Virus record (IMG/VR): IMGVR_UViG_3300049444_000130
From: a virus
Taxonomy: Duplodnaviria > Heunggongvirae > Uroviricota > Caudoviricetes
Direction: 5' to 3' (one strand)
Length of the DNA: 64,000 bases
A program made the position numbers and the translations under genes. The notes beneath the pieces are model-generated. The model worked only from the letters and a program-made list of their open reading frames with translations, was not told where the DNA came from and made no database searches. Positions 482 to 40,890 of the stretch are shown one piece after another (the first letter of the stretch is position 1; each line of letters starts with the position of its first letter).

Positions 482-3352
482 ATGGCGGACACCAATCCCA
501 AGATTACGCTGACCGCGCAAGACAATATGAGCGGCCCGCTGACGTCGATTGCAGCGGCCCTCAAGCGCTTGGAGACGGCGGGGGAAGAGAACCTCGCGTG
601 GGTGACCCAGCTCGCCGCTGGCTTTGGCGGTCAGCAACACGCTGCCGAGCAACTCAGTACGGCGCTCCAGGGCGTGCAGACGCAACTGGCAGCGGGCATC
701 ACGGCACAGCAAGCCAACGCCACTGCGACCCAGGGGGCCACCCAGGCACTGACGCAACAAACGCAAGCGGTCACCGCCACCGGCACCGCCTGGCAGTCCA
801 TCCTCAGCATCGCTGGAGGCGTCGGCATTGCCACCAGTATCAGCGCCATTGTCGGGCAGCTCAAGCAGTTTGTCAGCGAATCCGTGCAGCTCGCCATCAA
901 AATGCAATCCCTCACCGCCTCGTTCACGGCGATTACCGGGAGTAGTGCAGGGGCACAGCATGCCCTCGGGTTTTTGCGCAGCATTGCCGTCCAGACCGGC
1001 ACAGATTTCCTGACCCTCGCCCAGTCCTTTAAGAACTTTGAGGCGGCGGCGCGAGGCACAGCCCTAGAAGGCACGAAGGCCGAAGGCGTGTTCCGGGCCG
1101 TAACCGGCGCCGCCCGCGTCATGGGCCTGTCGAGTGCCGATACGGGCCGGGCCTTGCTCGCCCTGGAACAGATGGTGTCCAAGGGCACCGTGTCCATGGA
1201 GGAATTACGCCGGCAGTTGGGCAATGCCCTTCCCGGCGCCTTCCAGATTGCGGCCCGGGCCATGGGGACGACGACCGAAGGGCTCCAGGCCATGCTGAAG
1301 CAGGGCATCGAGAGCAGTGACTTTGTGACCCGCTTTGGTGCGCAACTGCAACGAGAATTTGGCCCGCGCCTAGCTGATGCCGGACAAACCGCCGCCGCCA
1401 CCTTTGGGCGCCTGGGCAATGAAGTGCAAGCGATGGCCACCAGCGTGGGGGCAAGCATCCTGACGATCTTGACCCCGGTAGCCAGCTTTCTCGAAAGCAC
1501 GCTGCGGAAGGTGCGGGAGACGGAAGAAGCGGCGACCCGACGGGCCAAGGTCGGGCTGGGTGGGATTCCCGAAGGCGCCACCGAGCAGGAAGCGGCACGC
1601 CTCCTTGAGTTACAGAAAAACCAAGATGCGCTGCGGGGGCGCATGGCAGGGGGAGGGCCATTCCCGCAATTTCAAGGGCTCACGGCGCAGCGAGAACAGG
1701 CCGAACTGCTTGCCATTCAAGAACAGATCAAAGCCCGTAAAGACCTCAATGCCACGTTCGCGCGGGATGTCGCCCCCTCGCCCCTGCCCGGCATCCCCTT
1801 TGCCACCGAAGCCCGCAACATTCAGAAAGAAGTCCAGACGCTCCGGGACGAACTGAAAGCCACCAATGTGCAGGCGCAGGTCTTCCCCGCCATGAGTCAG
1901 GACAAGCTCCAGAACGCCAAAGATACGCTGAAAATCCTCGAAACCAGCCTGGAGAAATTGGCTGAGCAGATCGCCCAGACCAAAGACAAAGCGCCGGGCG
2001 TGATGGAGGATCAGAAAAAGCTCCTCGCCACCTTGAACCAGGAATATGCCGAGGCCCTCGCCAATGTGACCAAACTGGAGGCCGCCAAAGAAGCGGAAAC
2101 CGAGGCCACCCGCAAAGCCGCACGGGAAGCCGAGAAGGCCGCGCGCGACAACGAACGGCGGACGCGCGACAGTGCCAAGCTCCTAGCGGAGATGGGCATT
2201 GCGGCCCGACTGGCGGACACCACCGCGCAGGCCGGCGGCGATCCCGAGGCCATGCAGGCCGCCAAGAATGCGGCGGAAGAAGCCACGCTGCGGCAGACCA
2301 TTGCGGAGAAGGGGCTGGGCGCCGCGGTGGAAGAAACGGCGGTCGCCTTTCTCCGCCAGAAGCAAGCTGCCGACGACAGCGCCGCCACGATCGCGGTCAT
2401 GGTCAAGGAGCAACGCGACCGTATCCAAGAGCTGGCCAAGGACCTCGATATCTTTGGCCTCAACCTCGCCCCAGACCAGGAGAAAGCCCTGGCCTTCAGC
2501 AAGAAAATCCAGGATGCCCTCGCCGTCGCCCAGGCCCCCAAAGAGGAACGTCCAGAAACCCGCCTCCGTGCCCTGGCCGGGAAAGAAGGCATCCCCCTCA
2601 GCCCTGCCGATGAAGCGGGCTTGCGTCAGCTCACTCTCACGCTCCAAGAACAGGCCCAGGCACGGGAGATGGAGAAGATTACCACACAGCTCGCGAACAA
2701 TATGCGGCAGACGTTTGACACGCTCTGGGAGCAGGTCTTTACGGGGGGCGTGACGTCCTTTCAGCAGCTCGGGCAAGTGGTGGTGCAGTCGCTCCAGCGT
2801 ATGTTTGCGCAGCTCACGGCGCAAATCATGAACATGCTCCTCAATGCGGCGTCCGGGACCATGGACGAGAAGGGCGGCTGGGAGGGAGCGCTCGCACGGG
2901 GGATTGTCGGCGTGGGGCTGGCAGCCCTGGGGGGCAGTGACTTTGGCTCCGATATCCCGGGCATGACGAATGATCCCGCGGTGATTGGGGATCTCCAGAG
3001 CCAGATAAATCTCCTGGGCACCAGCTCAGCGGGGGGCAATGTTTTTCCAGGGTTGGGCACCATTCGCATGCTGGCCGGGGGCGGCATTGTGAATCGCCCA
3101 AGTTTCACCACTATTGCCGAGATGGGCCAGCCCGAGGCCGTGGTCCCCTTGAGTGGTGGGCGGTCGATTCCCGTGGAAATGCGGGGACAGCAGCCTGCCG
3201 GGAATCAGCCCATCGTCATTGAAATTCACAACGATTACACCAATGCCGTCAGCCCGAGTGCACTCAAAACTGGGAAGAAAGAGATTATTCAACATTTTAT
3301 AAGCGACTACAACGCCGATGGGCCGACCCGTCGTACCATCAAGGCAGGATGA
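482..3352 (+). CDS. phage tail tape measure protein (TP901-family core region)
   Basis: 956 aa, Ala/Gln-rich and coiled-coil. Contains the conserved tape-measure core segment ALEQMVSKGTVSMEELRRQLGNALPGAFQIAARAMGTTTEGLQAMLKQG. Many nested out-of-frame ORFs on both strands are GC artefacts. Confidence 0.9.
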   Translation: MADTNPKITLTAQDNMSGPLTSIAAALKRLETAGEENLAWVTQLAAGFGGQQHAAEQLSTALQGVQTQLAAGITAQQANATATQGATQALTQQTQAVTATGTAWQSILSIAGGVGIATSISAIVGQLKQFVSESVQLAIKMQSLTASFTAITGSSAGAQHALGFLRSIAVQTGTDFLTLAQSFKNFEAAARGTALEGTKAEGVFRAVTGAARVMGLSSADTGRALLALEQMVSKGTVSMEELRRQLGNALPGAFQIAARAMGTTTEGLQAMLKQGIESSDFVTRFGAQLQREFGPRLADAGQTAAATFGRLGNEVQAMATSVGASILTILTPVASFLESTLRKVRETEEAATRRAKVGLGGIPEGATEQEAARLLELQKNQDALRGRMAGGGPFPQFQGLTAQREQAELLAIQEQIKARKDLNATFARDVAPSPLPGIPFATEARNIQKEVQTLRDELKATNVQAQVFPAMSQDKLQNAKDTLKILETSLEKLAEQIAQTKDKAPGVMEDQKKLLATLNQEYAEALANVTKLEAAKEAETEATRKAAREAEKAARDNERRTRDSAKLLAEMGIAARLADTTAQAGGDPEAMQAAKNAAEEATLRQTIAEKGLGAAVEETAVAFLRQKQAADDSAATIAVMVKEQRDRIQELAKDLDIFGLNLAPDQEKALAFSKKIQDALAVAQAPKEERPETRLRALAGKEGIPLSPADEAGLRQLTLTLQEQAQAREMEKITTQLANNMRQTFDTLWEQVFTGGVTSFQQLGQVVVQSLQRMFAQLTAQIMNMLLNAASGTMDEKGGWEGALARGIVGVGLAALGGSDFGSDIPGMTNDPAVIGDLQSQINLLGTSSAGGNVFPGLGTIRMLAGGGIVNRPSFTTIAEMGQPEAVVPLSGGRSIPVEMRGQQPAGNQPIVIEIHNDYTNAVSPSALKTGKKEIIQHFISDYNADGPTRRTIKAG

Positions 3353-33715: not shown

Positions 33716-34720
33716 TCATCGCGGCTCCTGCACGCCGAACAGCGTCAGTTGGGGGGCATCGTTGCGGAGACAGTGGGGAGAAAACCAGAGGACTTCGCGG
33801 TGCTTATTGATCCGCCCGCGCCCGTCCCCCTGATTCCCGTACCCGCCCTGGGTGGACCAAGAGACTTTCTCCCACGTCGCAGGCATGGTATACGTGGGCG
33901 TTTCATAGCCACAGAGCACGATCCGCAGCAACGGATGTTCCCCATTGGCCAGCGCCCACTGCCGCACGTCCTCAGCAATGCCCGGTGTCTCACAGGCATA
34001 GACGTCGTCGCGTTCGTCCGCTGGATAGGGCGGGTCGAGCACGATGCCCGTCAGCCCGTGCGTCCAGGTCACACTCGGCCCGAGCACCCGCGTCCAATCG
34101 CCGCAGCAGCTCCGCACGCGGCGTAACCGCGTTTGCAAGGCCGCGAACCAGGCGCGAAGGCCCTCGCCCTCCACGAGCTTCCGCTGCACCCCCTGCCCCG
34201 CATTCCCCAGGTGCACGCGCTTCCGCTGCACCCCCCGCCCCGCATCCCCCAGGTGCACGAGCTGGCGCGTCCCATCCGCCTGGACCACGCTTTGCCACGG
34301 CCCGTCCCCGGAGCACCACCCACCGCCAATCCAGCACGCAATGCCCCAGAGCCAACGTCCCGCAACTTGCGCGTCGTAGTAGTCGGGATCGCCCATGAGC
34401 CGGGCCGTAAAGGTTTCACGCTGGCGGACCAGCCAACCATGCACGGCGTGCTGGTGGCACTCATCGACCGGGAAGTCACACCAATACGCCACAGCGTCGG
34501 GATCGGCCTGCAAGGCTCTCGTCACGTTGCAGATAAAGCCATCAATATCGTTCACGGTCTCCAACCCAGGCTCGTGGGGGCGTGCCCACAGTTCGGCCCC
34601 ACTGCCAAAGAACGGGAGCACCAAATTGGGCACGTTCCCTAGGCGTGGCCAGATCAGGGGCGCTGCCCGGGCCTTGCCGCCATACCACGGATAGGGCGCC
34701 TTGAGCGGGGGCATGGCCAT
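33716..34720 (-). CDS. dam: Dam-like N6-adenine DNA methyltransferase (D12 class)
   Basis: Start at MAMPPLKAPYPWYGGKAR (GGGAGG RBS). PFFGSGAE motif I and VLDPPYP motif IV. Confidence 0.75.
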   Translation of the reverse strand: MAMPPLKAPYPWYGGKARAAPLIWPRLGNVPNLVLPFFGSGAELWARPHEPGLETVNDIDGFICNVTRALQADPDAVAYWCDFPVDECHQHAVHGWLVRQRETFTARLMGDPDYYDAQVAGRWLWGIACWIGGGWCSGDGPWQSVVQADGTRQLVHLGDAGRGVQRKRVHLGNAGQGVQRKLVEGEGLRAWFAALQTRLRRVRSCCGDWTRVLGPSVTWTHGLTGIVLDPPYPADERDDVYACETPGIAEDVRQWALANGEHPLLRIVLCGYETPTYTMPATWEKVSWSTQGGYGNQGDGRGRINKHREVLWFSPHCLRNDAPQLTLFGVQEPR

Positions 34721-34927
34721 CGCGCTAATTCCTCCCCTGCCTGCCGGCCTGGTAGCGCCACCAGCCGGCATCCGTCTGCGTGCCCGTGGTGGTGAGCACC
34801 CAGGCCAGCAAGGCCCGCGTGGCGTCCACCTGCCCGAGCGGCTGGGTGCCATCCAGACAGATCGTGCCCGGGCGCAACACGTGCAGGCCCAGGTCGCCGG
34901 GCGTGGGGTCGGGGGTGCTGGGCAGGA

Positions 34928-35248
34928 TCATGGTGCCTCCGTGCATGCGGAGAGATTGTCGAGCAGCATATCAGACTCCTCTACGACGGTACTCCGGTGC
35001 TCAAGAGCCGCGACATACGAGAGACTGCTCTCGCCAATACCGCGCAACTGGGCGATGGCATCACGCGGCACACCCGCCTTGAGGAGCGCCTGCACCTGGG
35101 CCGTCTGCGCCGGGGGATACTGCGTATGCAGATAGCGGCCATTCCACTTTGCGAGATACCAGAAAGGTTTCTTTCTCTCGTCAGTCTTCACGGCCCCTCC
35201 TTCCTGGCACACACGATCGCAATATGTTTGTCCAGCAGCCGCTGCCAT
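34928..35248 (-). CDS. hypothetical protein
   Basis: 106 aa. Confidence 0.3.
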   Translation of the reverse strand: MAAAAGQTYCDRVCQEGGAVKTDERKKPFWYLAKWNGRYLHTQYPPAQTAQVQALLKAGVPRDAIAQLRGIGESSLSYVAALEHRSTVVEESDMLLDNLSACTEAP

Positions 35249-35532
35249 CCCCGCAACACCGTCAGCCGCGCCGCCGTGGTCCCAATGCGAAACGTCTGGC
35301 GCTGTTCCTCCAGGGCGGCCTGGAGCGCCAGGTACACGGGGTCAAGAGGGAGGCCATCCGGCTCCGGAGGCGCCTCTCCCAGCACCAGTCCGTGCAGGTC
35401 GAGGAGTGCACCCGGCACGCGCCACGGGCGGCCTGCGCTCTGGGTGTCCTGGGTGCGCAGCTTGTGGCGAATTTCGGCATAGGTCGCAGGACTGACGGTC
35501 ATCAGGGCGTAGGCGTGCTCTGTGTGGCGCAT
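35188..35532 (-). CDS. hypothetical protein; tandem paralogue A (SPATYxEIRxKL N-terminal domain)
   Basis: MRHTEHAYALMTVSPATYAEIRHKL is shared with the adjacent gene 35502..35726. Confidence 0.35.
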   Translation of the reverse strand: MRHTEHAYALMTVSPATYAEIRHKLRTQDTQSAGRPWRVPGALLDLHGLVLGEAPPEPDGLPLDPVYLALQAALEEQRQTFRIGTTAARLTVLRGWQRLLDKHIAIVCARKEGP

Positions 35533-35726
35533 AGGGGTATCTCCTGTTCCGGTGCGCACGAGGTAGCCCGTAAGGCGATCCCGTGCATGTCGATCACTTC
35601 GCCGTCTCCACGCTCGTGCTGGATGGCATGGCCATAATCCACCGACAGCAGCTTGGCGCGTATCTCCCTATAGGTTGCGGGACTCACCTCCAGAATGGCG
35701 TAGGTGTGGGTCTGTCTCAGTCTCAT
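35502..35726 (-). CDS. hypothetical protein; tandem paralogue B
   Basis: MRLRQTHTYAILEVSPATYREIRAKL. Confidence 0.35.
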   Translation of the reverse strand: MRLRQTHTYAILEVSPATYREIRAKLLSVDYGHAIQHERGDGEVIDMHGIALRATSCAPEQEIPLCATQSTPTP

Positions 35727-36007
35727 AAGATATCCCCCCGCAGGAGGTCGAATCCTTCGCGCTGCATATAGGCGTCCGCTTCTTCCCGCGTGCCGTCGTA
35801 TTCCCCTTGCTTCGCAGCCTCAGCCAGAGACCGCAAGGACGGAAGCCCGGTGGCGAGACAATCCCGCACCAGGTCGATAATCGGCGTGACAGAATCGGAT
35901 TCGTATTCATCGTATTGACCAGCGTGGGCCTTGCGGAGCATAAAGGTGGGGGCGCCGGCATTAGTGAGGGCCTGGAAGAGACGATCTTTCGTGGGCAGGG
36001 ATGCCAT
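35723..36007 (-). CDS. hypothetical protein
   Basis: Start MASLPTKD with a GAGGAG RBS. 94 aa. Confidence 0.4.
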   Translation of the reverse strand: MASLPTKDRLFQALTNAGAPTFMLRKAHAGQYDEYESDSVTPIIDLVRDCLATGLPSLRSLAEAAKQGEYDGTREEADAYMQREGFDLLRGDIL

Positions 36008-36009
36008 GG

Positions 36010-36384
36010 TTATCTCCTCGTGAGGAACTGCTGGATAAGGGGCCAATGCGCTGGCGTATACACCGCCACCTCGACCGACGTCACCCGCGCCAGGGCCGCC
36101 AGCCAGCGCTGCTGATCCCCGCTCGGCTGTTCCGTCGCACGCTTCCACTCCCACAAATACAGCGGGCCGCCATCCCGATGGCAAATCGCGGCGTCCGGCC
36201 AGCCCGGGGTGCTGCCTTGGGATTTGCGCGCGTGGTAGTACAGGTGATCGGTCGCCTTGCAGAGCGCCTGCGTCCGACTCCGCAACAGGTCTTCGGGGGC
36301 ATCTGCAGCGAGCGGCATCAGCAGCGTCGGGCGGACGGCGCGCCCCTCCAGGTACGCATGATATTGTTCCGGGGTCCAGACGTC
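36010..36384 (-). CDS. VRR-NUC domain nuclease (PD-(D/E)xK)
   Basis: GWPDAAICHRDGGPLYLWEWKRATEQPSGDQQRWL...VEVAVY. Own AGGAG RBS and ATG. The reading frame is also contiguous with the upstream methyltransferase ORF. Confidence 0.55.
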   Translation of the reverse strand, partial: DVWTPEQYHAYLEGRAVRPTLLMPLAADAPEDLLRSRTQALCKATDHLYYHARKSQGSTPGWPDAAICHRDGGPLYLWEWKRATEQPSGDQQRWLAALARVTSVEVAVYTPAHWPLIQQFLTRR

Positions 36385-38430
36385 ATCGCTCATAGGGGTC
36401 TCCTGTGGTGGTTGGGGGCGGGCCAGGGGGCAGCGTGCCGAGCTGGCCGGACGTGGCGCCGTAGGCGTCGAAGCATCGTGCTCCCTGCGTATATCCCTCC
36501 CCCCTCCCGTGGTAGGTCCGCCGGTGAGGGCGGTAGCGGCATACGGCGGCGAGCTGACACACGCCGTCACGCCCCCTCCCCCGGCACCGACCGTGGTACT
36601 GGCCGGCTTGCTCATACACACCACGACTTCGTAGTCAATCGCCAGGTCGGGGCGCTTGGCCTCATGCAATCGTCTGAAAAAACTTTTTTTGGCCGTGGTA
36701 TGCTGCGTGTCCTCGCCAAACAACCCGCCCTGGGTACCGTGGTGCTCGACCAGCAGCGCGTGGTGCTCGTGCAGCGTCACAAACCCGACATGCTCACACA
36801 GGGCACGCCACTGGCCGGGGAAGTCCACAATTTTGCCTGCCCGGCAGTAGGCTTTGACGACCCAGATGGCATGGCCGCCTGGCTTGAGGACGGCGTACAC
36901 CTGCGCCAGAATTTCCCGGGCTGCAGACCAGAACGTCGTGCCCTGGGCATTGCCGAGCTGGCCGGGGGAGGTGCCGTAGGTACTGTCCTTGTAGGTTTGT
37001 CCCCCGGTCCCAAAAGCGCGGGGATCGCCTTGCGCATGGCTCGGTTCCTGGTCTTCCCAGGGGGGCGAACTCACGACCGCCTCGACCCGGCCCGGAGGGA
37101 GTGCGGCGAGTTGGCCGGGGGCGAAACCATAGCCCTCGCCTTTATAATTCGCGCGATTAATGACGCCACGGTCTGTCCGTGCCCCCTGCGCCCACTGCAG
37201 GCTGGGGTCGGCTGCCTGATCGCCGCCTTTGGGCGTCAGGTTGGCATACGGCGGACTACTGACACAGCACGCTATCTCCGCCGCCTCAATGACCGCCTGC
37301 AACTGGCGCGAATCGCCCTGCAAAATTATTGGGATAGGCGCTAGGAGTTTGCCGCACGTTTTGCAGCAGTCTTCTCCTGCCGTAAGAGGCGATTGTACGC
37401 CACTCCGCACGCGAGACTCTTGCACTTGTAAAACCGAACATTCTTCCGTGTGGTCCGCAACATCTCGATCCCACAGAAATCGCATTTGATCAGGATGGGC
37501 GTGCGCCGGCGCGTCGTTTTTGCATGGTAGGATTTGAAATGTTGAAGTTGTCTCAGGCGGTGGCAGGCAGGACTGCACAGTTTCTGGTGCGGCTTCCCCA
37601 GAAACTCTTGGTGGCAAATCATGCATTGACATCGTACTAGATGTTTGATGATGCCATGAGGATGGTGGTGCTTCATGTGTTCTGAGATCGTCAGAAGTTC
37701 GAGGTTTTCTCTGCGATTGTCCTGACGATTGCCGTTGATGTGATGCACCACCTCCCCCTTCTGTAATCGGCGCCCCATCTCCTGTTCGAGAATATTGGTG
37801 TGCTCCTTGCGGTCCTTGCCGTTTGCCCGAATGTGTACGTATCCCTGTTTGTCGATGTACCTTCCGCCCTTCCAGTGTCCATTTTTCTCCTTGGCTCTGT
37901 TGCCATTGCTCGCAAGACGGCTGAGGGTTTGTTTCATCTCGTCTGACCATGGTCGCCCCTTGTTCCATGGAATTCGACATGTCTTGCTGCAATAGGGGCC
38001 GGTTGGACTTTTCTTTAACTCCGATGGGGCCCTGTGGAACGTCTTTCCGCAGGTGCGGCATTGTACTTGTGGCATGGTTACACTCACAGATATAGCGTTG
38101 AGTCCAAAGTTTTATATTGCTATCAGAGAGCGCAACAAAAGTTTTTTCTAATTCTATTCCAATCCACTGTAGTCTATGAAAAATTGCATCAATACCTCCT
38201 AGGGAACATCCCCCAAAGGGATCAATCACGGTACTCTCGCCCGGCACCAGCCAGCCCTCCGCGAGCGCATGCTGGTAGATTTTTTGTATCAGCGACCGAC
38301 TAAATTTTGCAGGGTGACTATATGCCTCATTCGTAATTAACCCATTCCATCCTTTCCCATAGCATCCTTGCCACTCATCGACCGTCGGCGCTTGTCCCAT
38401 CCCTTGCGACTCCTTCCGGGTTGCTGTCAT
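36010..38430 (-). CDS. DNA methyltransferase reading frame (motif I DPFGGCSLGG N-terminal; three SSPPY/W motif-IV-like repeats). It is interrupted by, or nested with, HNH gene 37341..38087 in another frame, and is C-terminally contiguous with the VRR-NUC gene
   Basis: The methyltransferase-like sequence before 38088 and after 37340 is meaningful (VIDPFGGCSLGG; CVSSPPYANL, VVSSPPWED, CVSSPPYAAT). The ~250 codons in between, in this frame, are low-complexity Q/S/R-rich read-through across the HNH gene. Confidence 0.4.
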   Translation of the reverse strand: MTATRKESQGMGQAPTVDEWQGCYGKGWNGLITNEAYSHPAKFSRSLIQKIYQHALAEGWLVPGESTVIDPFGGCSLGGIDAIFHRLQWIGIELEKTFVALSDSNIKLWTQRYICECNHATSTMPHLRKDVPQGPIGVKEKSNRPLLQQDMSNSMEQGATMVRRDETNPQPSCEQWQQSQGEKWTLEGRKVHRQTGIRTHSGKRQGPQGAHQYSRTGDGAPITEGGGGASHQRQSSGQSQRKPRTSDDLRTHEAPPSSWHHQTSSTMSMHDLPPRVSGEAAPETVQSCLPPPETTSTFQILPCKNDAPAHAHPDQMRFLWDRDVADHTEECSVLQVQESRVRSGVQSPLTAGEDCCKTCGKLLAPIPIILQGDSRQLQAVIEAAEIACCVSSPPYANLTPKGGDQAADPSLQWAQGARTDRGVINRANYKGEGYGFAPGQLAALPPGRVEAVVSSPPWEDQEPSHAQGDPRAFGTGGQTYKDSTYGTSPGQLGNAQGTTFWSAAREILAQVYAVLKPGGHAIWVVKAYCRAGKIVDFPGQWRALCEHVGFVTLHEHHALLVEHHGTQGGLFGEDTQHTTAKKSFFRRLHEAKRPDLAIDYEVVVCMSKPASTTVGAGGGGVTACVSSPPYAATALTGGPTTGGGRDIRREHDASTPTAPRPASSARCPLARPQPPQETPMSDDVWTPEQYHAYLEGRAVRPTLLMPLAADAPEDLLRSRTQALCKATDHLYYHARKSQGSTPGWPDAAICHRDGGPLYLWEWKRATEQPSGDQQRWLAALARVTSVEVAVYTPAHWPLIQQFLTRR
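37341..38087 (-). CDS. HNH homing endonuclease
   Basis: GYVHIRANGKDRKEHTNILEQEMGRRLQKGEVVHHINGNRQDNRRENLELLTISEHMKHH plus zinc-finger CxxC pairs. Lower GC than its neighbours. Lies inside the methyltransferase ORF in a different frame. Confidence 0.7.
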   Translation of the reverse strand: MSVTMPQVQCRTCGKTFHRAPSELKKSPTGPYCSKTCRIPWNKGRPWSDEMKQTLSRLASNGNRAKEKNGHWKGGRYIDKQGYVHIRANGKDRKEHTNILEQEMGRRLQKGEVVHHINGNRQDNRRENLELLTISEHMKHHHPHGIIKHLVRCQCMICHQEFLGKPHQKLCSPACHRLRQLQHFKSYHAKTTRRRTPILIKCDFCGIEMLRTTRKNVRFYKCKSLACGVAYNRLLRQEKTAAKRAANS

Positions 38431-38760
38431 GCGATTCCTCTTGTGGTGGCACGATCGTCACACACGCTCGACACGCCGCGATCCGCGTACTCACATGCTG
38501 CCGGCCACACGGACACAGCACATACACCGCCCCACACGCGCACTCCAGTTGCGGGGCGGGACAGGGGAGCAGGGGGATGACGAGGCGGCGGTCAGGCATG
38601 GGGTACCTCTCTTCAGGAGTCTTCCGCCATCCCGGTCTCATCGGGCGACCACGACTCCAGGTCGCCGAGAAACCCCTCGACGTGCGAATCACAATAAAAC
38701 TCCAGGCCGGCGGCTTCGTCGGGGCAGTCCGCCATGTGGGTGAGCCGCACGCCGCATGCC

Positions 38761-39741
38761 TCACACGTGTGGCTCTGCCGTGTCATGTCGCACCGCCTCG
38801 CTGGTTAAGATGCGCCATGCTGCGACTGCCACTGCTGGAACAATGCCATTGCCAAGGGCTCTAATACGGTCCACATGATGGGCCAACCGAGGAGCCACTC
38901 GGCGAACATCGGGTTCAGTAGTCCACCAAGTTGTTCGTTCAAGGGGCGAGCGTTGCGCTCCAGGGTCTCCGGTGAGGCTTTGCCCGACCGCCCGGGACTG
39001 GCGGTCGGGGTCGCAAACATCTCGGTGTTGCCGTGACTGTCGGGGACTCCCCACTTGTTCGCCCTCGGCGTTGGGAATTTCTTCACGGCCCCACTCAGCG
39101 TGTCCCACTGATATTTGCCTTTGCGTTGATAGGGGTTGTTCTTCCAGTCTGACGCTTTGATCGTAGGCCACATCTTGACTGCCCCGTCCAAACTGAGGTG
39201 TTTCTTGTCCATGGATGGCCCGGTATTGTTGCGCGGGGTAGGCCAGTATCCAAAGCCGCTTCCTGATATGGGGCGCTCCGACTTCGTCAGCCCCCAGACA
39301 GCACCAGCGTGCATCCATCCCCAACGCGGCAAGGTCTGTAAGCACTCGGGGAAGCCCTCGAACAGCGAGATCTGCGGTGTTCTCAATGAATGCGTAGCGG
39401 GGTCGTACTTCGCCAAGAATGCGGGCAAACTCTGCCCAGAGACCTGAGCGTGGGCCAGTAATACCGATTCGCTTGCCGGCCTGGGAGATATCCTGACACG
39501 GAAATCCTCCAGCGACGACATCGACGTGTCCGCGCCAGGGGATGCCGTCAAAGGTGACAACATCGTCCCAGATGGGGAAAGGGGGCAACACGCCGTCCCG
39601 TTGGCGGTGGACAAGCACATGCTGGCAGTAGGGGTCGATCTCGACGGCACACACAGGCACATGCCCGAGCAACAGGCCGGCGAGGATGCCTCCCCCGGCG
39701 CCAGCGAAGAGATGCAATTCTCTGAGGGGAGATGTCTCCAT
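38761..39741 (-). CDS. dcm: C5-cytosine DNA methyltransferase (Dcm-type)
   Basis: LFAGAGG motif I, GFPCQDIS motif IV, ENT motif VI, RLWIL and a C-terminal GNGIVPAV. GGGAG RBS. Confidence 0.8.
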   Translation of the reverse strand: METSPLRELHLFAGAGGGILAGLLLGHVPVCAVEIDPYCQHVLVHRQRDGVLPPFPIWDDVVTFDGIPWRGHVDVVAGGFPCQDISQAGKRIGITGPRSGLWAEFARILGEVRPRYAFIENTADLAVRGLPRVLTDLAALGMDARWCCLGADEVGAPHIRKRLWILAYPAQQYRAIHGQETPQFGRGSQDVAYDQSVRLEEQPLSTQRQISVGHAEWGREEIPNAEGEQVGSPRQSRQHRDVCDPDRQSRAVGQSLTGDPGAQRSPLERTTWWTTEPDVRRVAPRLAHHVDRIRALGNGIVPAVAVAAWRILTSEAVRHDTAEPHV

Positions 39742-39742
39742 G

Positions 39743-39934
39743 TCATTTCATCTCCCGTGCGACCGCCTCGTTACCGTTGACACTGGGGGTCAGCTCGGGT
39801 GCCACGTCCGCTAACGGGGCATCAGGTAGCGGGGGGTCAGGCCGGGCATGCGCGTCGAGGTGATGTGTGGACATCTCACTGAGTGTGGTGAACTGGGCAG
39901 GACAGGACCAACAGGATACGCGGATGAACGTCAT
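39743..39934 (-). CDS. small Cys-containing protein upstream of dcm
   Basis: MTFIRVSCWSCPAQF... Its stop lies 1 nt before the dcm ATG. Confidence 0.25.
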   Translation of the reverse strand: MTFIRVSCWSCPAQFTTLSEMSTHHLDAHARPDPPLPDAPLADVAPELTPSVNGNEAVAREMK

Positions 39935-40695
39935 GAGGTGACTCCTGGGGAAAAAAGTGCGACTTGGGAAGGCCGTGCAGAGGCAGTGGGCGGAAACAAT
40001 GGCAATTGTTGGTACGCGGCTGCGAGGCGGTGACAAGCGAGGGCAAAGTAGCGTGGGTCTTGTTCAATGCCGATAAACCGTCTGCCCATTTCGAGCCAAG
40101 CGATACCCGTCGTCCCGCTGCCCATAAAGGGGTCGAGAATCTGTTCACCGGGGAGACTAAACTCCCCAATCCACGCGCGCAGCAGGGCAAGCGGTTTTTC
40201 AGTGGGATGCCCGCTCGTAGTCGCGCCTTTCGGAAACGTCCATACGGCATGCTTTCCTCCACCATTCCAGAATTTCCGACCAGGCCGGTGACAGATGGCC
40301 ACCGCCTCCCAACCCGTCCCGGGCCGATCTCCCGTAAACTGCGGGGAACCATCCGGTTTCCGCCAGATGCCCAGCCGTACGAGGAGCCCAGCGGTTTCCA
40401 GGGCGTGGGCATACCGCCAGTCGCACGTAAAAATGACCCACCGCCGTGCCAGGGCCGTCCAGGTGTGCACATAGGAGACACATTCCCCCAACGATATGCC
40501 CGCAAATGGGAGAGCCTGCCCGGCAGGCTCTCCAGTGCGGAGGAGCACGGTCGCAAGGTGGTGCGCATGGGAATGCGCTGTCCCATAGGGAGGGTCAGTC
40601 ATGATGAGATCGACCGTGTCAAGGGTGGGCAGTACGGCGACACAATTTCCGCATATCAACCGGCACGCACCTATCGTCACCTCCTCAACACTCAT
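39931..40695 (-). CDS. beta-class N6-adenine/N4-cytosine DNA methyltransferase
   Basis: DLIMTDPPYG (motif IV) is N-terminal and ILDPFMGSGTTGIAW (motif I) is C-terminal. Start at MSVEEV with an AAGGAG RBS. Confidence 0.8.
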   Translation of the reverse strand: MSVEEVTIGACRLICGNCVAVLPTLDTVDLIMTDPPYGTAHSHAHHLATVLLRTGEPAGQALPFAGISLGECVSYVHTWTALARRWVIFTCDWRYAHALETAGLLVRLGIWRKPDGSPQFTGDRPGTGWEAVAICHRPGRKFWNGGGKHAVWTFPKGATTSGHPTEKPLALLRAWIGEFSLPGEQILDPFMGSGTTGIAWLEMGRRFIGIEQDPRYFALACHRLAAAYQQLPLFPPTASARPSQVALFSPGVTS

Positions 40696-40890
40696 GAGGT
40701 GACTCCTTCTGGCTTGTGCCACGCCTGCCACGCAAACCCCACACAGCCAGCCTGCACATGGGGGTGCTCACACATTATGGGATGAGGCAGCCCATGACAG
40801 AGACACCGTTGGCGCAGGAGCGGCATGACCCGGGCCTCGAAGGCCCGGATGGTCATCGGGGTCGCCGCGTACACGGCACACAGGGCACAG

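Follow-up and report, generated by a model that had tools for sequence, protein, structure and literature searches.

The sequence analysed here is a window of 64,000 nucleotides from the Caudoviricetes virus with the IMG/VR record IMGVR_UViG_3300049444_000130, in which a gene for an HNH endonuclease lies within a gene for a DNA methyltransferase, on the same strand and in a different reading frame. It is commonly assumed that homing endonucleases persist in genes by way of self-splicing introns, inteins or gene splitting. For the present locus we propose, with a probability of roughly 0.7, that a homing endonuclease gene has been inserted out of frame in the manner of the so-called ShiLan domain and that the frame of the host gene is read through it. 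Hidden HNH genes are a barely explored alternative to introns, inteins and gene splitting, supported so far by computation only. This work contributes strong evidence that the host frame is under selection, some ten additional loci of the same family and a bracket of four conserved cysteines; the locus and its ten or so relatives provide, to our knowledge, the strongest sequence-level evidence for host-frame selection. The features on which the argument is built are the following:

36010..38430, minus strand: reading frame of 806 codons, consisting of the methyltransferase N-lobe, a read-through loop, the catalytic lobe, a frameshifted tail and a VRR-NUC-like open reading frame (ORF)
38092..38430, minus strand: N-terminal part of the methyltransferase, residues 1-113 (HPAKF ... 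DPFGG ... GIELE ... NIKLWTQRY), S-adenosylmethionine (AdoMet)-binding segment, G+C content 0.478
37333..38091, minus strand: insertion of 759 nucleotides, residues 114-366 of the methyltransferase frame, boundaries accurate to within a few codons (alignments A1 and A5)
37341..38075, minus strand: gene for an HNH_3 homing-type endonuclease of 244 residues, frame +1 relative to the methyltransferase, identified by Pfam, the PHROG HNH families and homologues P0122-P0124
38080..38088, minus strand: C-E-C (residues 115-117) in the methyltransferase frame, just 5' of the HNH ATG; CxC in all related loci with a readable junction
37348..37365, minus strand: C-K-T-C-G-K (residues 356-361), read in the methyltransferase frame across the final codons of HNH; CxxC(G/S)K in all related loci with a readable junction
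36604..37332, minus strand: catalytic part of the methyltransferase, residues 367-609, with LQGDSR, two SSPPY/W ... YGxxPGQLG modules, TFWSAA ... LKPGG, SFFRRL and CMSKP, G+C content 0.634

The original prediction, which had been made from the letters of this stretch, described a single minus-strand frame of 806 codons with methyltransferase motifs at both ends, a low-complexity translation of some 250 codons between them and, across that very stretch, a homing-type HNH gene on the same strand in another frame. All of this is borne out. VIDPFGG occupies residues 67-73 of the long ORF and SSPPY/W occurs at residues 392, 455 and 627, motif I preceding motif IV at roughly the spacing that had been proposed (about 60 residues without the HNH ORF). 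The stretch of 253 codons that separates the two methyltransferase parts has a high content of S, Q, P, T, G and R. The nested ORF extends over 248 codons (37341..38087) in the +1 frame, its likely start being refined to the ATG at 38075 rather than the GTG at 38087 and its stop codon being the TAG at 37341..37343. The encoded protein combines an N-terminal CxxC finger, an HNH core (HH-N-...-N-LE-...-H) and zinc-finger-like cysteine motifs at its C-terminus, and matches HNH_3 (PF13392; E 2e-13, 50 bits against a cut-off of 24.8); it belongs to a homing-type family. Its nearest homologues in the protein database, with 69%, 52% and 46% identity, are all located on short contigs (L005-L007), and a phmmer search of the PDB yielded nothing at E<=0.01.

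That the two ends are parts of one methyltransferase, as had been assumed, is shown by alignment with its homologues. With the N- and C-terminal parts joined conceptually as the query, more than 1,300 homologues were found, many of which span 88-99% of the joined query at 40-55% identity. Intact homologues (45-55% identity) are uninterrupted (...N[IL]xLWQRRYG-HLPxWxx-PxxLQGDSR...) where the window has ...NIKLWTQRY, 253 residues and PIILQGDSR..., and the distance from DPFGG to QGDS amounts to 301 residues in the window as opposed to 56-57 in 120 homologues (82 in those with an unrelated upstream insert). None of these 120 best homologues bears an insert at the HNH site (alignments A1 and A5), and P0014 represents an insert-free allele across the LWQRRYGHLPQWVAPTLLQGD region. 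The insert takes the place of about eight linker residues ('GHLPQWVA' in intact homologues) between the AdoMet-binding and the catalytic lobe. It is composed of a leader of 16-17 nucleotides, the HNH ORF of 735 nucleotides and a few further bases, the TAG lying about 8 nucleotides before the estimated 3' boundary. Since the intact homologues run contiguously across the site, the alignments demonstrate a single methyltransferase gene interrupted by an exact HNH insertion. The catalytic motifs of the methyltransferase are intact.

The composition of the insert bears directly on the suggestion, also part of the original prediction, that the arrangement is intron-like. Phage group I introns often carry HNH ORFs, I-PfoP3I (PMC3428280) and I-HmuI being examples, and an insertion into a conserved gene with an apparently co-converted flank is what a group I or another self-splicing intron with a spliced methyltransferase message would also present. 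However, 735 of the approximately 759 bases of the insert are HNH ORF and the remaining 24 or so leave no room for a ribozyme core. A permissive Rfam scan (E<=1) returned nothing in 35500..40500 and only a tRNA in eight related loci, without any group I or group II intron, and the authors of the ShiLan study arrived at the same negative result with RNAweasel (PMC11855218). Furthermore, an intron that is spliced does not require the host frame to be free of stops and the exons to be in phase, nor would splicing select for such a frame. We therefore consider an intron very unlikely. Protein splicing by an intein with an HNH domain has an even smaller, practically negligible probability: the insert keeps the phase of the host frame and starts close to a cysteine, but the HNH gene lies in the +1 frame and the host-frame translation is of low complexity, predicted to be disordered and ends in ...CGKLLAPI, without HN followed by Cys, Ser or Thr. 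Pfam detects no intein or Hint domain on the host-frame insert, and the intein was accordingly rejected.

The key feature of the locus is the absence of stop codons in the methyltransferase frame throughout the insert. This open, low-complexity frame had been taken as incidental in the earlier reading; the codon data show instead that it is actively maintained by selection. When synonymous codons were permuted within the HNH gene, a procedure that keeps the protein, its codon usage and the composition, the shuffled sequences contained a mean of about nine stops in the methyltransferase frame (8.7-9.2, minimum 2) and 0 of 20,000 were stop-free, whereas the window contains none. A host-frame stop requires an HNH codon ending in T followed by a codon that starts with AA, AG or GA, and such dangerous positions were counted wherever a synonym ending in T exists. 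For the window and the three loci with the nearest HNH homologues the following values were obtained:

Window: 0 host-frame stops; shuffle mean about 9; T-ending codons at 0 of 44-45 dangerous junctions and at 38-39 of 131-134 positions elsewhere
L005: 0 host-frame stops; shuffle mean 5.4; T-ending codons at 0 of 46 dangerous junctions and at 28 of 135 positions elsewhere
L006: 0 host-frame stops; shuffle mean 8.9; T-ending codons at 0 of 41 dangerous junctions and at 32 of 79 positions elsewhere
L007: 0 host-frame stops; shuffle mean 6.7; T-ending codons at 0 of 42 dangerous junctions and at 33 of 128 positions elsewhere

Pooled over the four loci, T-ending codons are found at none of 173 dangerous positions as compared with 131 of 473 (28%) elsewhere. 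As a control, 19 free-standing and more distantly related HNH genes from the same scans were examined; they contain 10.6 stops per 100 codons of the equivalent frame and place T-ending codons at 46% of dangerous junctions versus 49% elsewhere, that is they show no avoidance. The stops in the shuffles, the avoidance of T-ending codons at dangerous junctions and its lack in free-standing relatives argue for selection on the open frame.

The same results contradict the view that the frame is open by chance, owing to a T-poor composition, or that the locus is a decaying pseudogene with a dead methyltransferase. The coding strand is indeed poor in T (17%), the tail of the gene is frameshifted and one related locus, L009, has stops in the host frame. 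On the other hand, shuffles that preserve composition, protein and codon usage still produce some nine stops, and the third frame across the HNH stretch contains ten. Avoidance is specific to the junctions and recurs in loci with 42-70% HNH identity, and the intact catalytic motifs do not fit a dead enzyme. In view of the shuffles, the junction codons and the free-standing control this explanation was rejected as extremely unlikely.

Selection for a stop-free frame also bears on the notion of genes in pieces, according to which the methyltransferase has been divided by a free-standing homing endonuclease and its two polypeptides are translated separately and then reassemble, as in Aeromonas phage Aeh1. 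In its favour, the Joint Genome Institute (JGI) gene calls for the same phage comprise a separate HNH gene (198 residues) and a separate C-terminal part (P0001, 437 residues, starting with a TTG at 37323), with the N-terminal part uncalled, and the point of division lies between lobes that form the chain termini in beta-class enzymes. A split gene, however, predicts no avoidance of host-frame stops, while avoidance is very strong in all loci. Moreover, the frame of the upstream fragment meets no stop before 36010, and the downstream fragment, which begins around LQGDS, has neither a Shine-Dalgarno sequence nor an ATG, the TTG being the choice of the gene caller. A split gene or free-standing endonuclease, as had been envisaged in the original prediction, is thus decidedly unlikely, and the short HNH and short methylase calls are artefacts of the unusual layout. 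Automatic annotation can miss elements of this kind, as illustrated by the lack of an N-terminal fragment and the shortened HNH and methylase genes in the JGI calls. The gene call recurs on six contigs from different samples, which are at least 99.96% identical to the window over the overlap; the contigs L001-L004 with this call, likewise at least 99.96% identical, offered no informative variation.

The arrangement recurs at the same site and in the same +1 frame in at least ten further, diverged metagenomic loci (L005-L008, L010-L013, P0313 and P0315), in which the HNH proteins share 42-70% identity and the G+C content of the HNH gene varies between 0.36 and 0.56. L008, L010, L011, L012 and L013 were detected in a scan of metagenome contigs, P0313 and P0315 by a phmmer search of the full library with the loop peptide. 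In L005-L007 the HNH gene occupies the corresponding site in a homologous methyltransferase, with a host frame that is open from one end of the contig to the other; complete insert-bearing ORFs are available as P0313 (632 residues) and P0315 (594 residues), and P0314 is the ORF of L013. In L010 (2817-3434, G+C content 0.36) the HNH gene has lost its N-terminal finger and ATG and contains an internal stop within the HNH motif (DN*IENLE), and the host frame is open over 377 codons, which looks like a decaying endonuclease in a host gene that is still maintained. As a separate observation, L011 harbours a second hidden endonuclease gene (2535-3233; Pfam HNH PF01844, E 4.6e-5), which encodes zinc ribbons and is located close to the last SPPY module in frame +2, and its host frame is open through this gene as well, giving an ORF of 800 codons.

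The translation of the insert in the host frame is bracketed by four cysteines. In all loci with readable junctions it opens with (Y/W/F)-C-x-C and closes with C-x-x-C-(G/S)-K-x-x-(A/V)-P-x-P..LQGDSR. The codons for the cysteines and the glycine of the bracket vary synonymously (TGT/TGC; GGC/GGA/GGT), the HNH-frame C-termini encoded by the same bases differ (..RAANS*, ..RAAK* and ..IVEKE*, with L013 reading on) and intact homologues have no cysteine at the bracket position. Taken together, these three findings point to selection on the host-frame protein. Probably the four cysteines form a small zinc knuckle that ties the ends of the loop together. An AlphaFold2 run with alignment A5, which had been checked by eye and included three insert-bearing ORFs, returned confident lobes, with a predicted local distance difference test score (pLDDT) of 77-97 for the N-terminal part over this and another run. 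The loop (residues 120-348) reached a pLDDT of only about 28, as opposed to 73 at the 5' junction with its CxC (residues 111-120) and 77-84 at the 3' junction with its CxxCGK (residues 351-370), and isolated beta-bridges were predicted at residues 114, 355 and 362. A further possibility is that the mobile cassette brings along its own device for being tolerated: a stop-free HNH gene together with CxC and CxxCGK half-sites that would fold into a zinc knuckle within the host protein, staple the ends of a disordered loop of 150-250 residues and allow the element to settle in an interdomain joint without splicing. If this is true, it would constitute a third general answer, beside introns and inteins, to the question of how an endonuclease can live inside a protein-coding gene, and a natural instance of long dual coding (about 735 nucleotides) kept by selection on both frames. 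We put this forward tentatively, its chances being somewhat below even; in any case the cysteine bracket is a structural feature open to direct testing.

On the reading proposed here, a mobile HNH_3 gene with a leader of about 17 nucleotides would have been copied into the methyltransferase, at the linker that joins its two lobes. The element would be removed neither at the RNA nor at the protein level; it has a length divisible by three, and its codons are chosen such that no stop occurs in the host frame. A ribosome starting at the methyltransferase ATG at 38430 would therefore read the HNH gene in frame -1 relative to HNH, and the product would consist of two lobes, presumably still active as a methyltransferase, joined by a disordered loop of some 250 residues. 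The base of this loop would carry the four cysteines brought in by the insert, two in the CxC with which the loop starts and two in the CxxCGK with which it ends. The HNH protein would be made separately from the ATG at 38075 in the +1 frame and is assumed to cut insert-free alleles, whereupon repair would copy the element along with a portion of the 5' exon. The low G+C content of the segment 37341..38430 fits this.

Several points weigh against our interpretation, the first being that everything in it is deduced from sequence. Secondly, in most loci the HNH ATG is not preceded by a clear Shine-Dalgarno sequence. The host frame of L009 contains two stops, both of which are G-to-T changes relative to L008; the two loci differ at 7 of 1,290 bases and the L009 contig has a coverage of about 2x, so the stops may be sequencing errors or mark a decaying copy, and we treat the locus as uncertain. 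The frameshifted tail raises the possibility that the window gene itself is heading to decay, although the six contigs from different samples that carry it are at least 99.96% identical to the window over the overlap; and the HNH-bearing methyltransferase may be dispensable, given three other methyltransferase genes within 7 kb. With regard to the putative zinc knuckle, an AlphaFold2 run with a different alignment (A2) gave low confidence at the CxxC segment and was uninformative at the junctions, with the lobes still confident (pLDDT above 90 for residues 495-610) and the loop disordered; in this alignment MAFFT had misplaced the LQGDS...SSPPY of the homologues onto loop residues 147-171 or thereabouts, which created a spurious bump at residues 141-160.

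In another explanation the open frame serves HNH expression, either by a +1 shift near the CxC codons, yielding a fusion of the N-lobe with HNH, or by coupling to the HNH ATG, host-frame stops being avoided solely to spare the downstream genes polarity or Rho termination. The lack of a convincing Shine-Dalgarno sequence before the HNH ATG in most loci speaks for it, as does the fact that HNH is in +1 to the host frame in every member, and the 2025 ShiLan paper likewise leaves HNH translation unexplained. However, the ATG is kept at the head of the N-terminal zinc finger in eight of nine loci examined, and coupling or shifting at the 5' end requires neither another 240 open codons nor an in-phase catalytic part. 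Nor would it account for the conservation of CxxCGK at the 3' end in the host frame, or for a host frame that is open in L010 although its HNH gene is broken. We consider this explanation unlikely. A scan for promoters detected two sites as compared with 1.0 +/- 0.9 in shuffles, the site upstream of the HNH gene being no better than chance; we list it merely as a lead:

38151..38180, minus strand: weak TTCATA-18-TAGAAT site resembling a sigma-70 promoter, located in the AT-rich 5' part some 75 nucleotides ahead of the HNH ATG

Our proposal of an out-of-frame insertion that is read through has a close precedent in the ShiLan domain, an insertion without host-frame stops in the gp65 methylase of mycobacteriophage ShiLan (Arsenault, Gosselin & Gogarten, Genes 2025, PMC11855218; first noted in PMC9957025). 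There, an HNH protein of 195 residues is hidden in another frame, its gene begins 18 bp into the insert and ends in the last four bases, and features of introns or inteins are lacking (PMC11855218). The study is purely computational, reports Pacc40 gp60 as a second case and contains neither a codon-level test for selection nor a mention of bracketing cysteines (PMC11855218). ShiLan and the window have in common an insertion in a phage DNA methyltransferase, an open host frame, the lack of intron and intein signals and a predicted loop, as well as an HNH ORF that lies on the same strand in another frame, starts some 17-18 nucleotides into the insert and ends in its last bases. The two HNH proteins are homologous (34.6% identity over residues 3-173, E 2e-18). 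In fact, when the window HNH was compared with 50,697 phage records by tblastn, the hidden HNH proteins of ShiLan and its relatives were the best matches (33-35% identity, E down to 2e-19).

The differences are nevertheless considerable. The ShiLan host protein belongs to the classical beta class, in which DPPY opens the series of motifs and motif I closes it, and is one that blastp aligns with the window methyltransferase at the level of motifs only. The insertion site is another one and the HNH frame is +2 instead of +1, and the window locus does not belong to the ShiLan domain in the strict sense. The start of the ShiLan insert resembles the downstream exon, and a bracketing CxC...CxxC is absent. 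Finally, the ShiLan hosts are Mycobacterium phages, whereas the loci of the window type are from uncultured phages or prophages in several metagenomes. By these comparisons the window contains the same kind of element as the ShiLan domain, with a related endonuclease and a different host family, site and phase. The arrangement is not limited to actinophage beta-class methylases, having arisen in, or moved to, an unrelated position of a permuted family, in the other relative frame.

The next tblastn match of the window HNH (31% identity, E 2e-14) lies in a methylase of a Cylindrospermopsis phage, the 617-residue 'DNA methylase' g59 of Cr-LKS3 (OM373202.1, L058), which also has an HNH ORF in an alternate frame. 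It differs from the window in that the enzyme is beta-class and the HNH frame is +2; in the literature found, no paper describes it as a hidden HNH. Pacc40 gp60 likewise has an out-of-frame putative HNH in a methylase with an open host frame, but is a helicase-methylase fusion with another HNH at another site; in other phages a relative of that HNH stands by itself upstream of the methylase (PMC11855218).

Further systems show how an endonuclease can be accommodated within a useful gene. In Aeh1 (nrdA-a / mobE / nrdA-b) and in T4 (gene 39/60, with mobA and a 50-nucleotide bypass) a homing endonuclease gene lies inside an essential or useful gene, where the protein can bear an interruption, and the mobile cassette brings the means of being tolerated. 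There, the host protein is synthesized as two polypeptides or a gap is bypassed by the ribosome, whereas in the window nothing would be skipped and the host frame would be translated through. I-HmuI, I-PfoP3I (PMC3428280) and HNH inteins belong to the same endonuclease superfamily and home with co-conversion of the flanks. Group I introns and inteins, however, depend on splicing of RNA or protein, and the window has neither a ribozyme core nor a Hint domain.

Probable traces of such flank transfer can be discerned in the window. As originally predicted, the HNH gene and the adjoining 5' segment of the methyltransferase are richer in AT than their surroundings, with a G+C content of 0.525 in the HNH gene and 0.478 in 38096..38430, compared to 0.634 in 36620..37340 and 0.629 in the whole window. 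Nucleotide identity between the window and L008 amounts to 76-87% in the 180 nucleotides upstream of the insert, 57-79% inside the HNH gene and about 60% further upstream, and the alignment stops some 90 nucleotides downstream of the insert. This is the pattern expected of homing with asymmetric co-conversion. The identity gradient and the step in G+C content (0.48-0.53 versus 0.63) fit an acquisition of the HNH gene together with most of the 5' part of the methyltransferase gene, and the N-terminal part of low G+C content was probably co-transferred with it. The original prediction of an invasion by a homing endonuclease with co-conversion of flanks thus agrees with the exact insertion, the step in composition and the identity gradient; its intron-like, split-gene and free-standing variants do not stand.

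At the 3' end of the long frame two further features have to be considered:

36383..36619, minus strand: alternative frame with the ancestral C-terminus of the methyltransferase (... YGATSGQLGTLPPGPPPTTTGDPYER*), recognized from the ORF list, the sequence and the C-termini of homologues in A1
36010..36393, minus strand: VRR-NUC-like nuclease ORF of 127 residues with its own AGGAG and ATG, the ATG overlapping the ancestral methyltransferase stop (ATGAGCGATGA)

The homologues end with SSPPYA...(about 25 residues)...YG(H/A)T(P/E)GQLGAMP(A/P)G followed by a stop. Relative to all of them the window is frameshifted within a run of G at about 36495..36510, by which the long ORF enters the frame of the next gene; the ancestral C-terminus is readable in the other frame, and its TGA overlaps the ATG of that gene. 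The fusion of methyltransferase and nuclease that had been considered possible is therefore a product of the frameshift, a secondary accident in a dispensable tail or possibly a systematic assembly error. It is correct that the long ORF runs into an ORF with its own ribosome-binding site and start codon (AGGAG and the ATG at 36393). The match of this ORF to VRR_NUC (PF08774), which covers profile positions 32-110 of 116, has an E value of 0.014 and, at 15.9 bits, does not reach the cut-off of 23.8.

The methyltransferase itself belongs to an unusual family. Its homologues carry PF01555, and the window protein matches this N6_N4_Mtase profile in the AdoMet segment only (profile positions 160-218 of 221 on residues 37-101; 27.9 bits against a cut-off of 26.7). 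The beta-class order of motifs (IV ... VIII, then X-I-II-III) is not found, the AdoMet segment coming first and SPPY after it. In a profile search of the PDB the N-terminal part aligned with the C-terminal AdoMet segment of TTHA0409 (2zie, 195-278 of 297), CcrM, DpnA, M.PvuII and M.RsrI. Because the N-terminal part matches the C-terminal segment of beta-class enzymes and the SPPY modules follow it, the alignments identify the family as a circular permutation of the beta-class N6/N4 order. The joint that received the insertion corresponds to the position of the natural N- and C-termini of beta-class enzymes, plausibly a place where a long loop can be tolerated. Comparison of the AlphaFold2 model with the PDB by Foldseek produced weak matches to Rossmann methyltransferases alone, with TTHA0409 as the best. 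When the spliced methyltransferase was compared with phages by tblastn, no match was obtained at 1e-5; genomes of isolated phages essentially lack this family. Megablast of 35000..40800 against phages gave no match.

Within the family (P0002-P0120) the number of tandem 'SSPPY ... YGxxPGQLGxxPxG' modules varies between about one and eight. The insert-free homologues P0048, P0101, P0111 and P0032 (and P0006 and P0010) have, some 12 residues before the HNH site, an in-frame, zinc-ribbon-like CxC ... CPxC segment or inserts of larger size. P0006, P0010, P0032 and P0048 were considered as other inserts at the HNH site and rejected, as their gaps lie at the different, upstream site and correspond to in-frame zinc-ribbon-like segments. 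The family thus already tolerates cysteine-bracketed loops near the joint. In the window the HNH-bearing gene is one of four DNA methyltransferase genes within 7 kb of a temperate-phage early region (33716..40731, minus strand), the others being a D12-like gene (33716..34852, weak Pfam match), a C5-cytosine methyltransferase gene and a standard N6_N4 gene (39931..40731). The same phage contigs also encode an integrase, helix-turn-helix regulators and Bro-N.

A further observation concerns the C5-cytosine methyltransferase gene (38761..39746, minus strand), which consists of two ORFs on one strand that overlap over their full length. Frame A (38761..39741, 326 residues) encodes motifs I-VIII, about 100 junk-like residues and then a motif-X-like ...RIRALGNGIVP, and matches Pfam DNA_methylase (E 5e-25) and phrog_363. 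In frame B (+1; 38805..39746, 313 residues) the N-terminal half is a shadow of frame A and the C-terminal half is well conserved, with WPTP repeats and LNPMFAEWLLGWPIMWT. Matches of frame B comprise phrog_1008 and at least 140 database proteins, all of which lack a Pfam domain. No description of such an overlapping arrangement of C5-methyltransferase frames was found in the literature. Both frames are also open in gene 60 of Acinetobacter phage vB_AbaM_ABMM1 (L059, AT-rich, with 28 stops in the third frame) and over the whole gene in L060 and L062. The gene thus looks like a C5-methyltransferase made from two fully overlapping ORFs or by a double frameshift. In L061 frame B alone is open throughout; through an insertion, the C-terminal motifs of B type and of A type are set apart from each other and come to lie in a single frame. 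The C5-methyltransferase homologue of L061 also carries, at 2276-2761 and within an insertion that its host frame reads through, an ORF in an alternate frame with HNH-like Cys/His motifs (no Pfam match), and insertion of an endonuclease gene out of frame may thus extend to C5 methylases.

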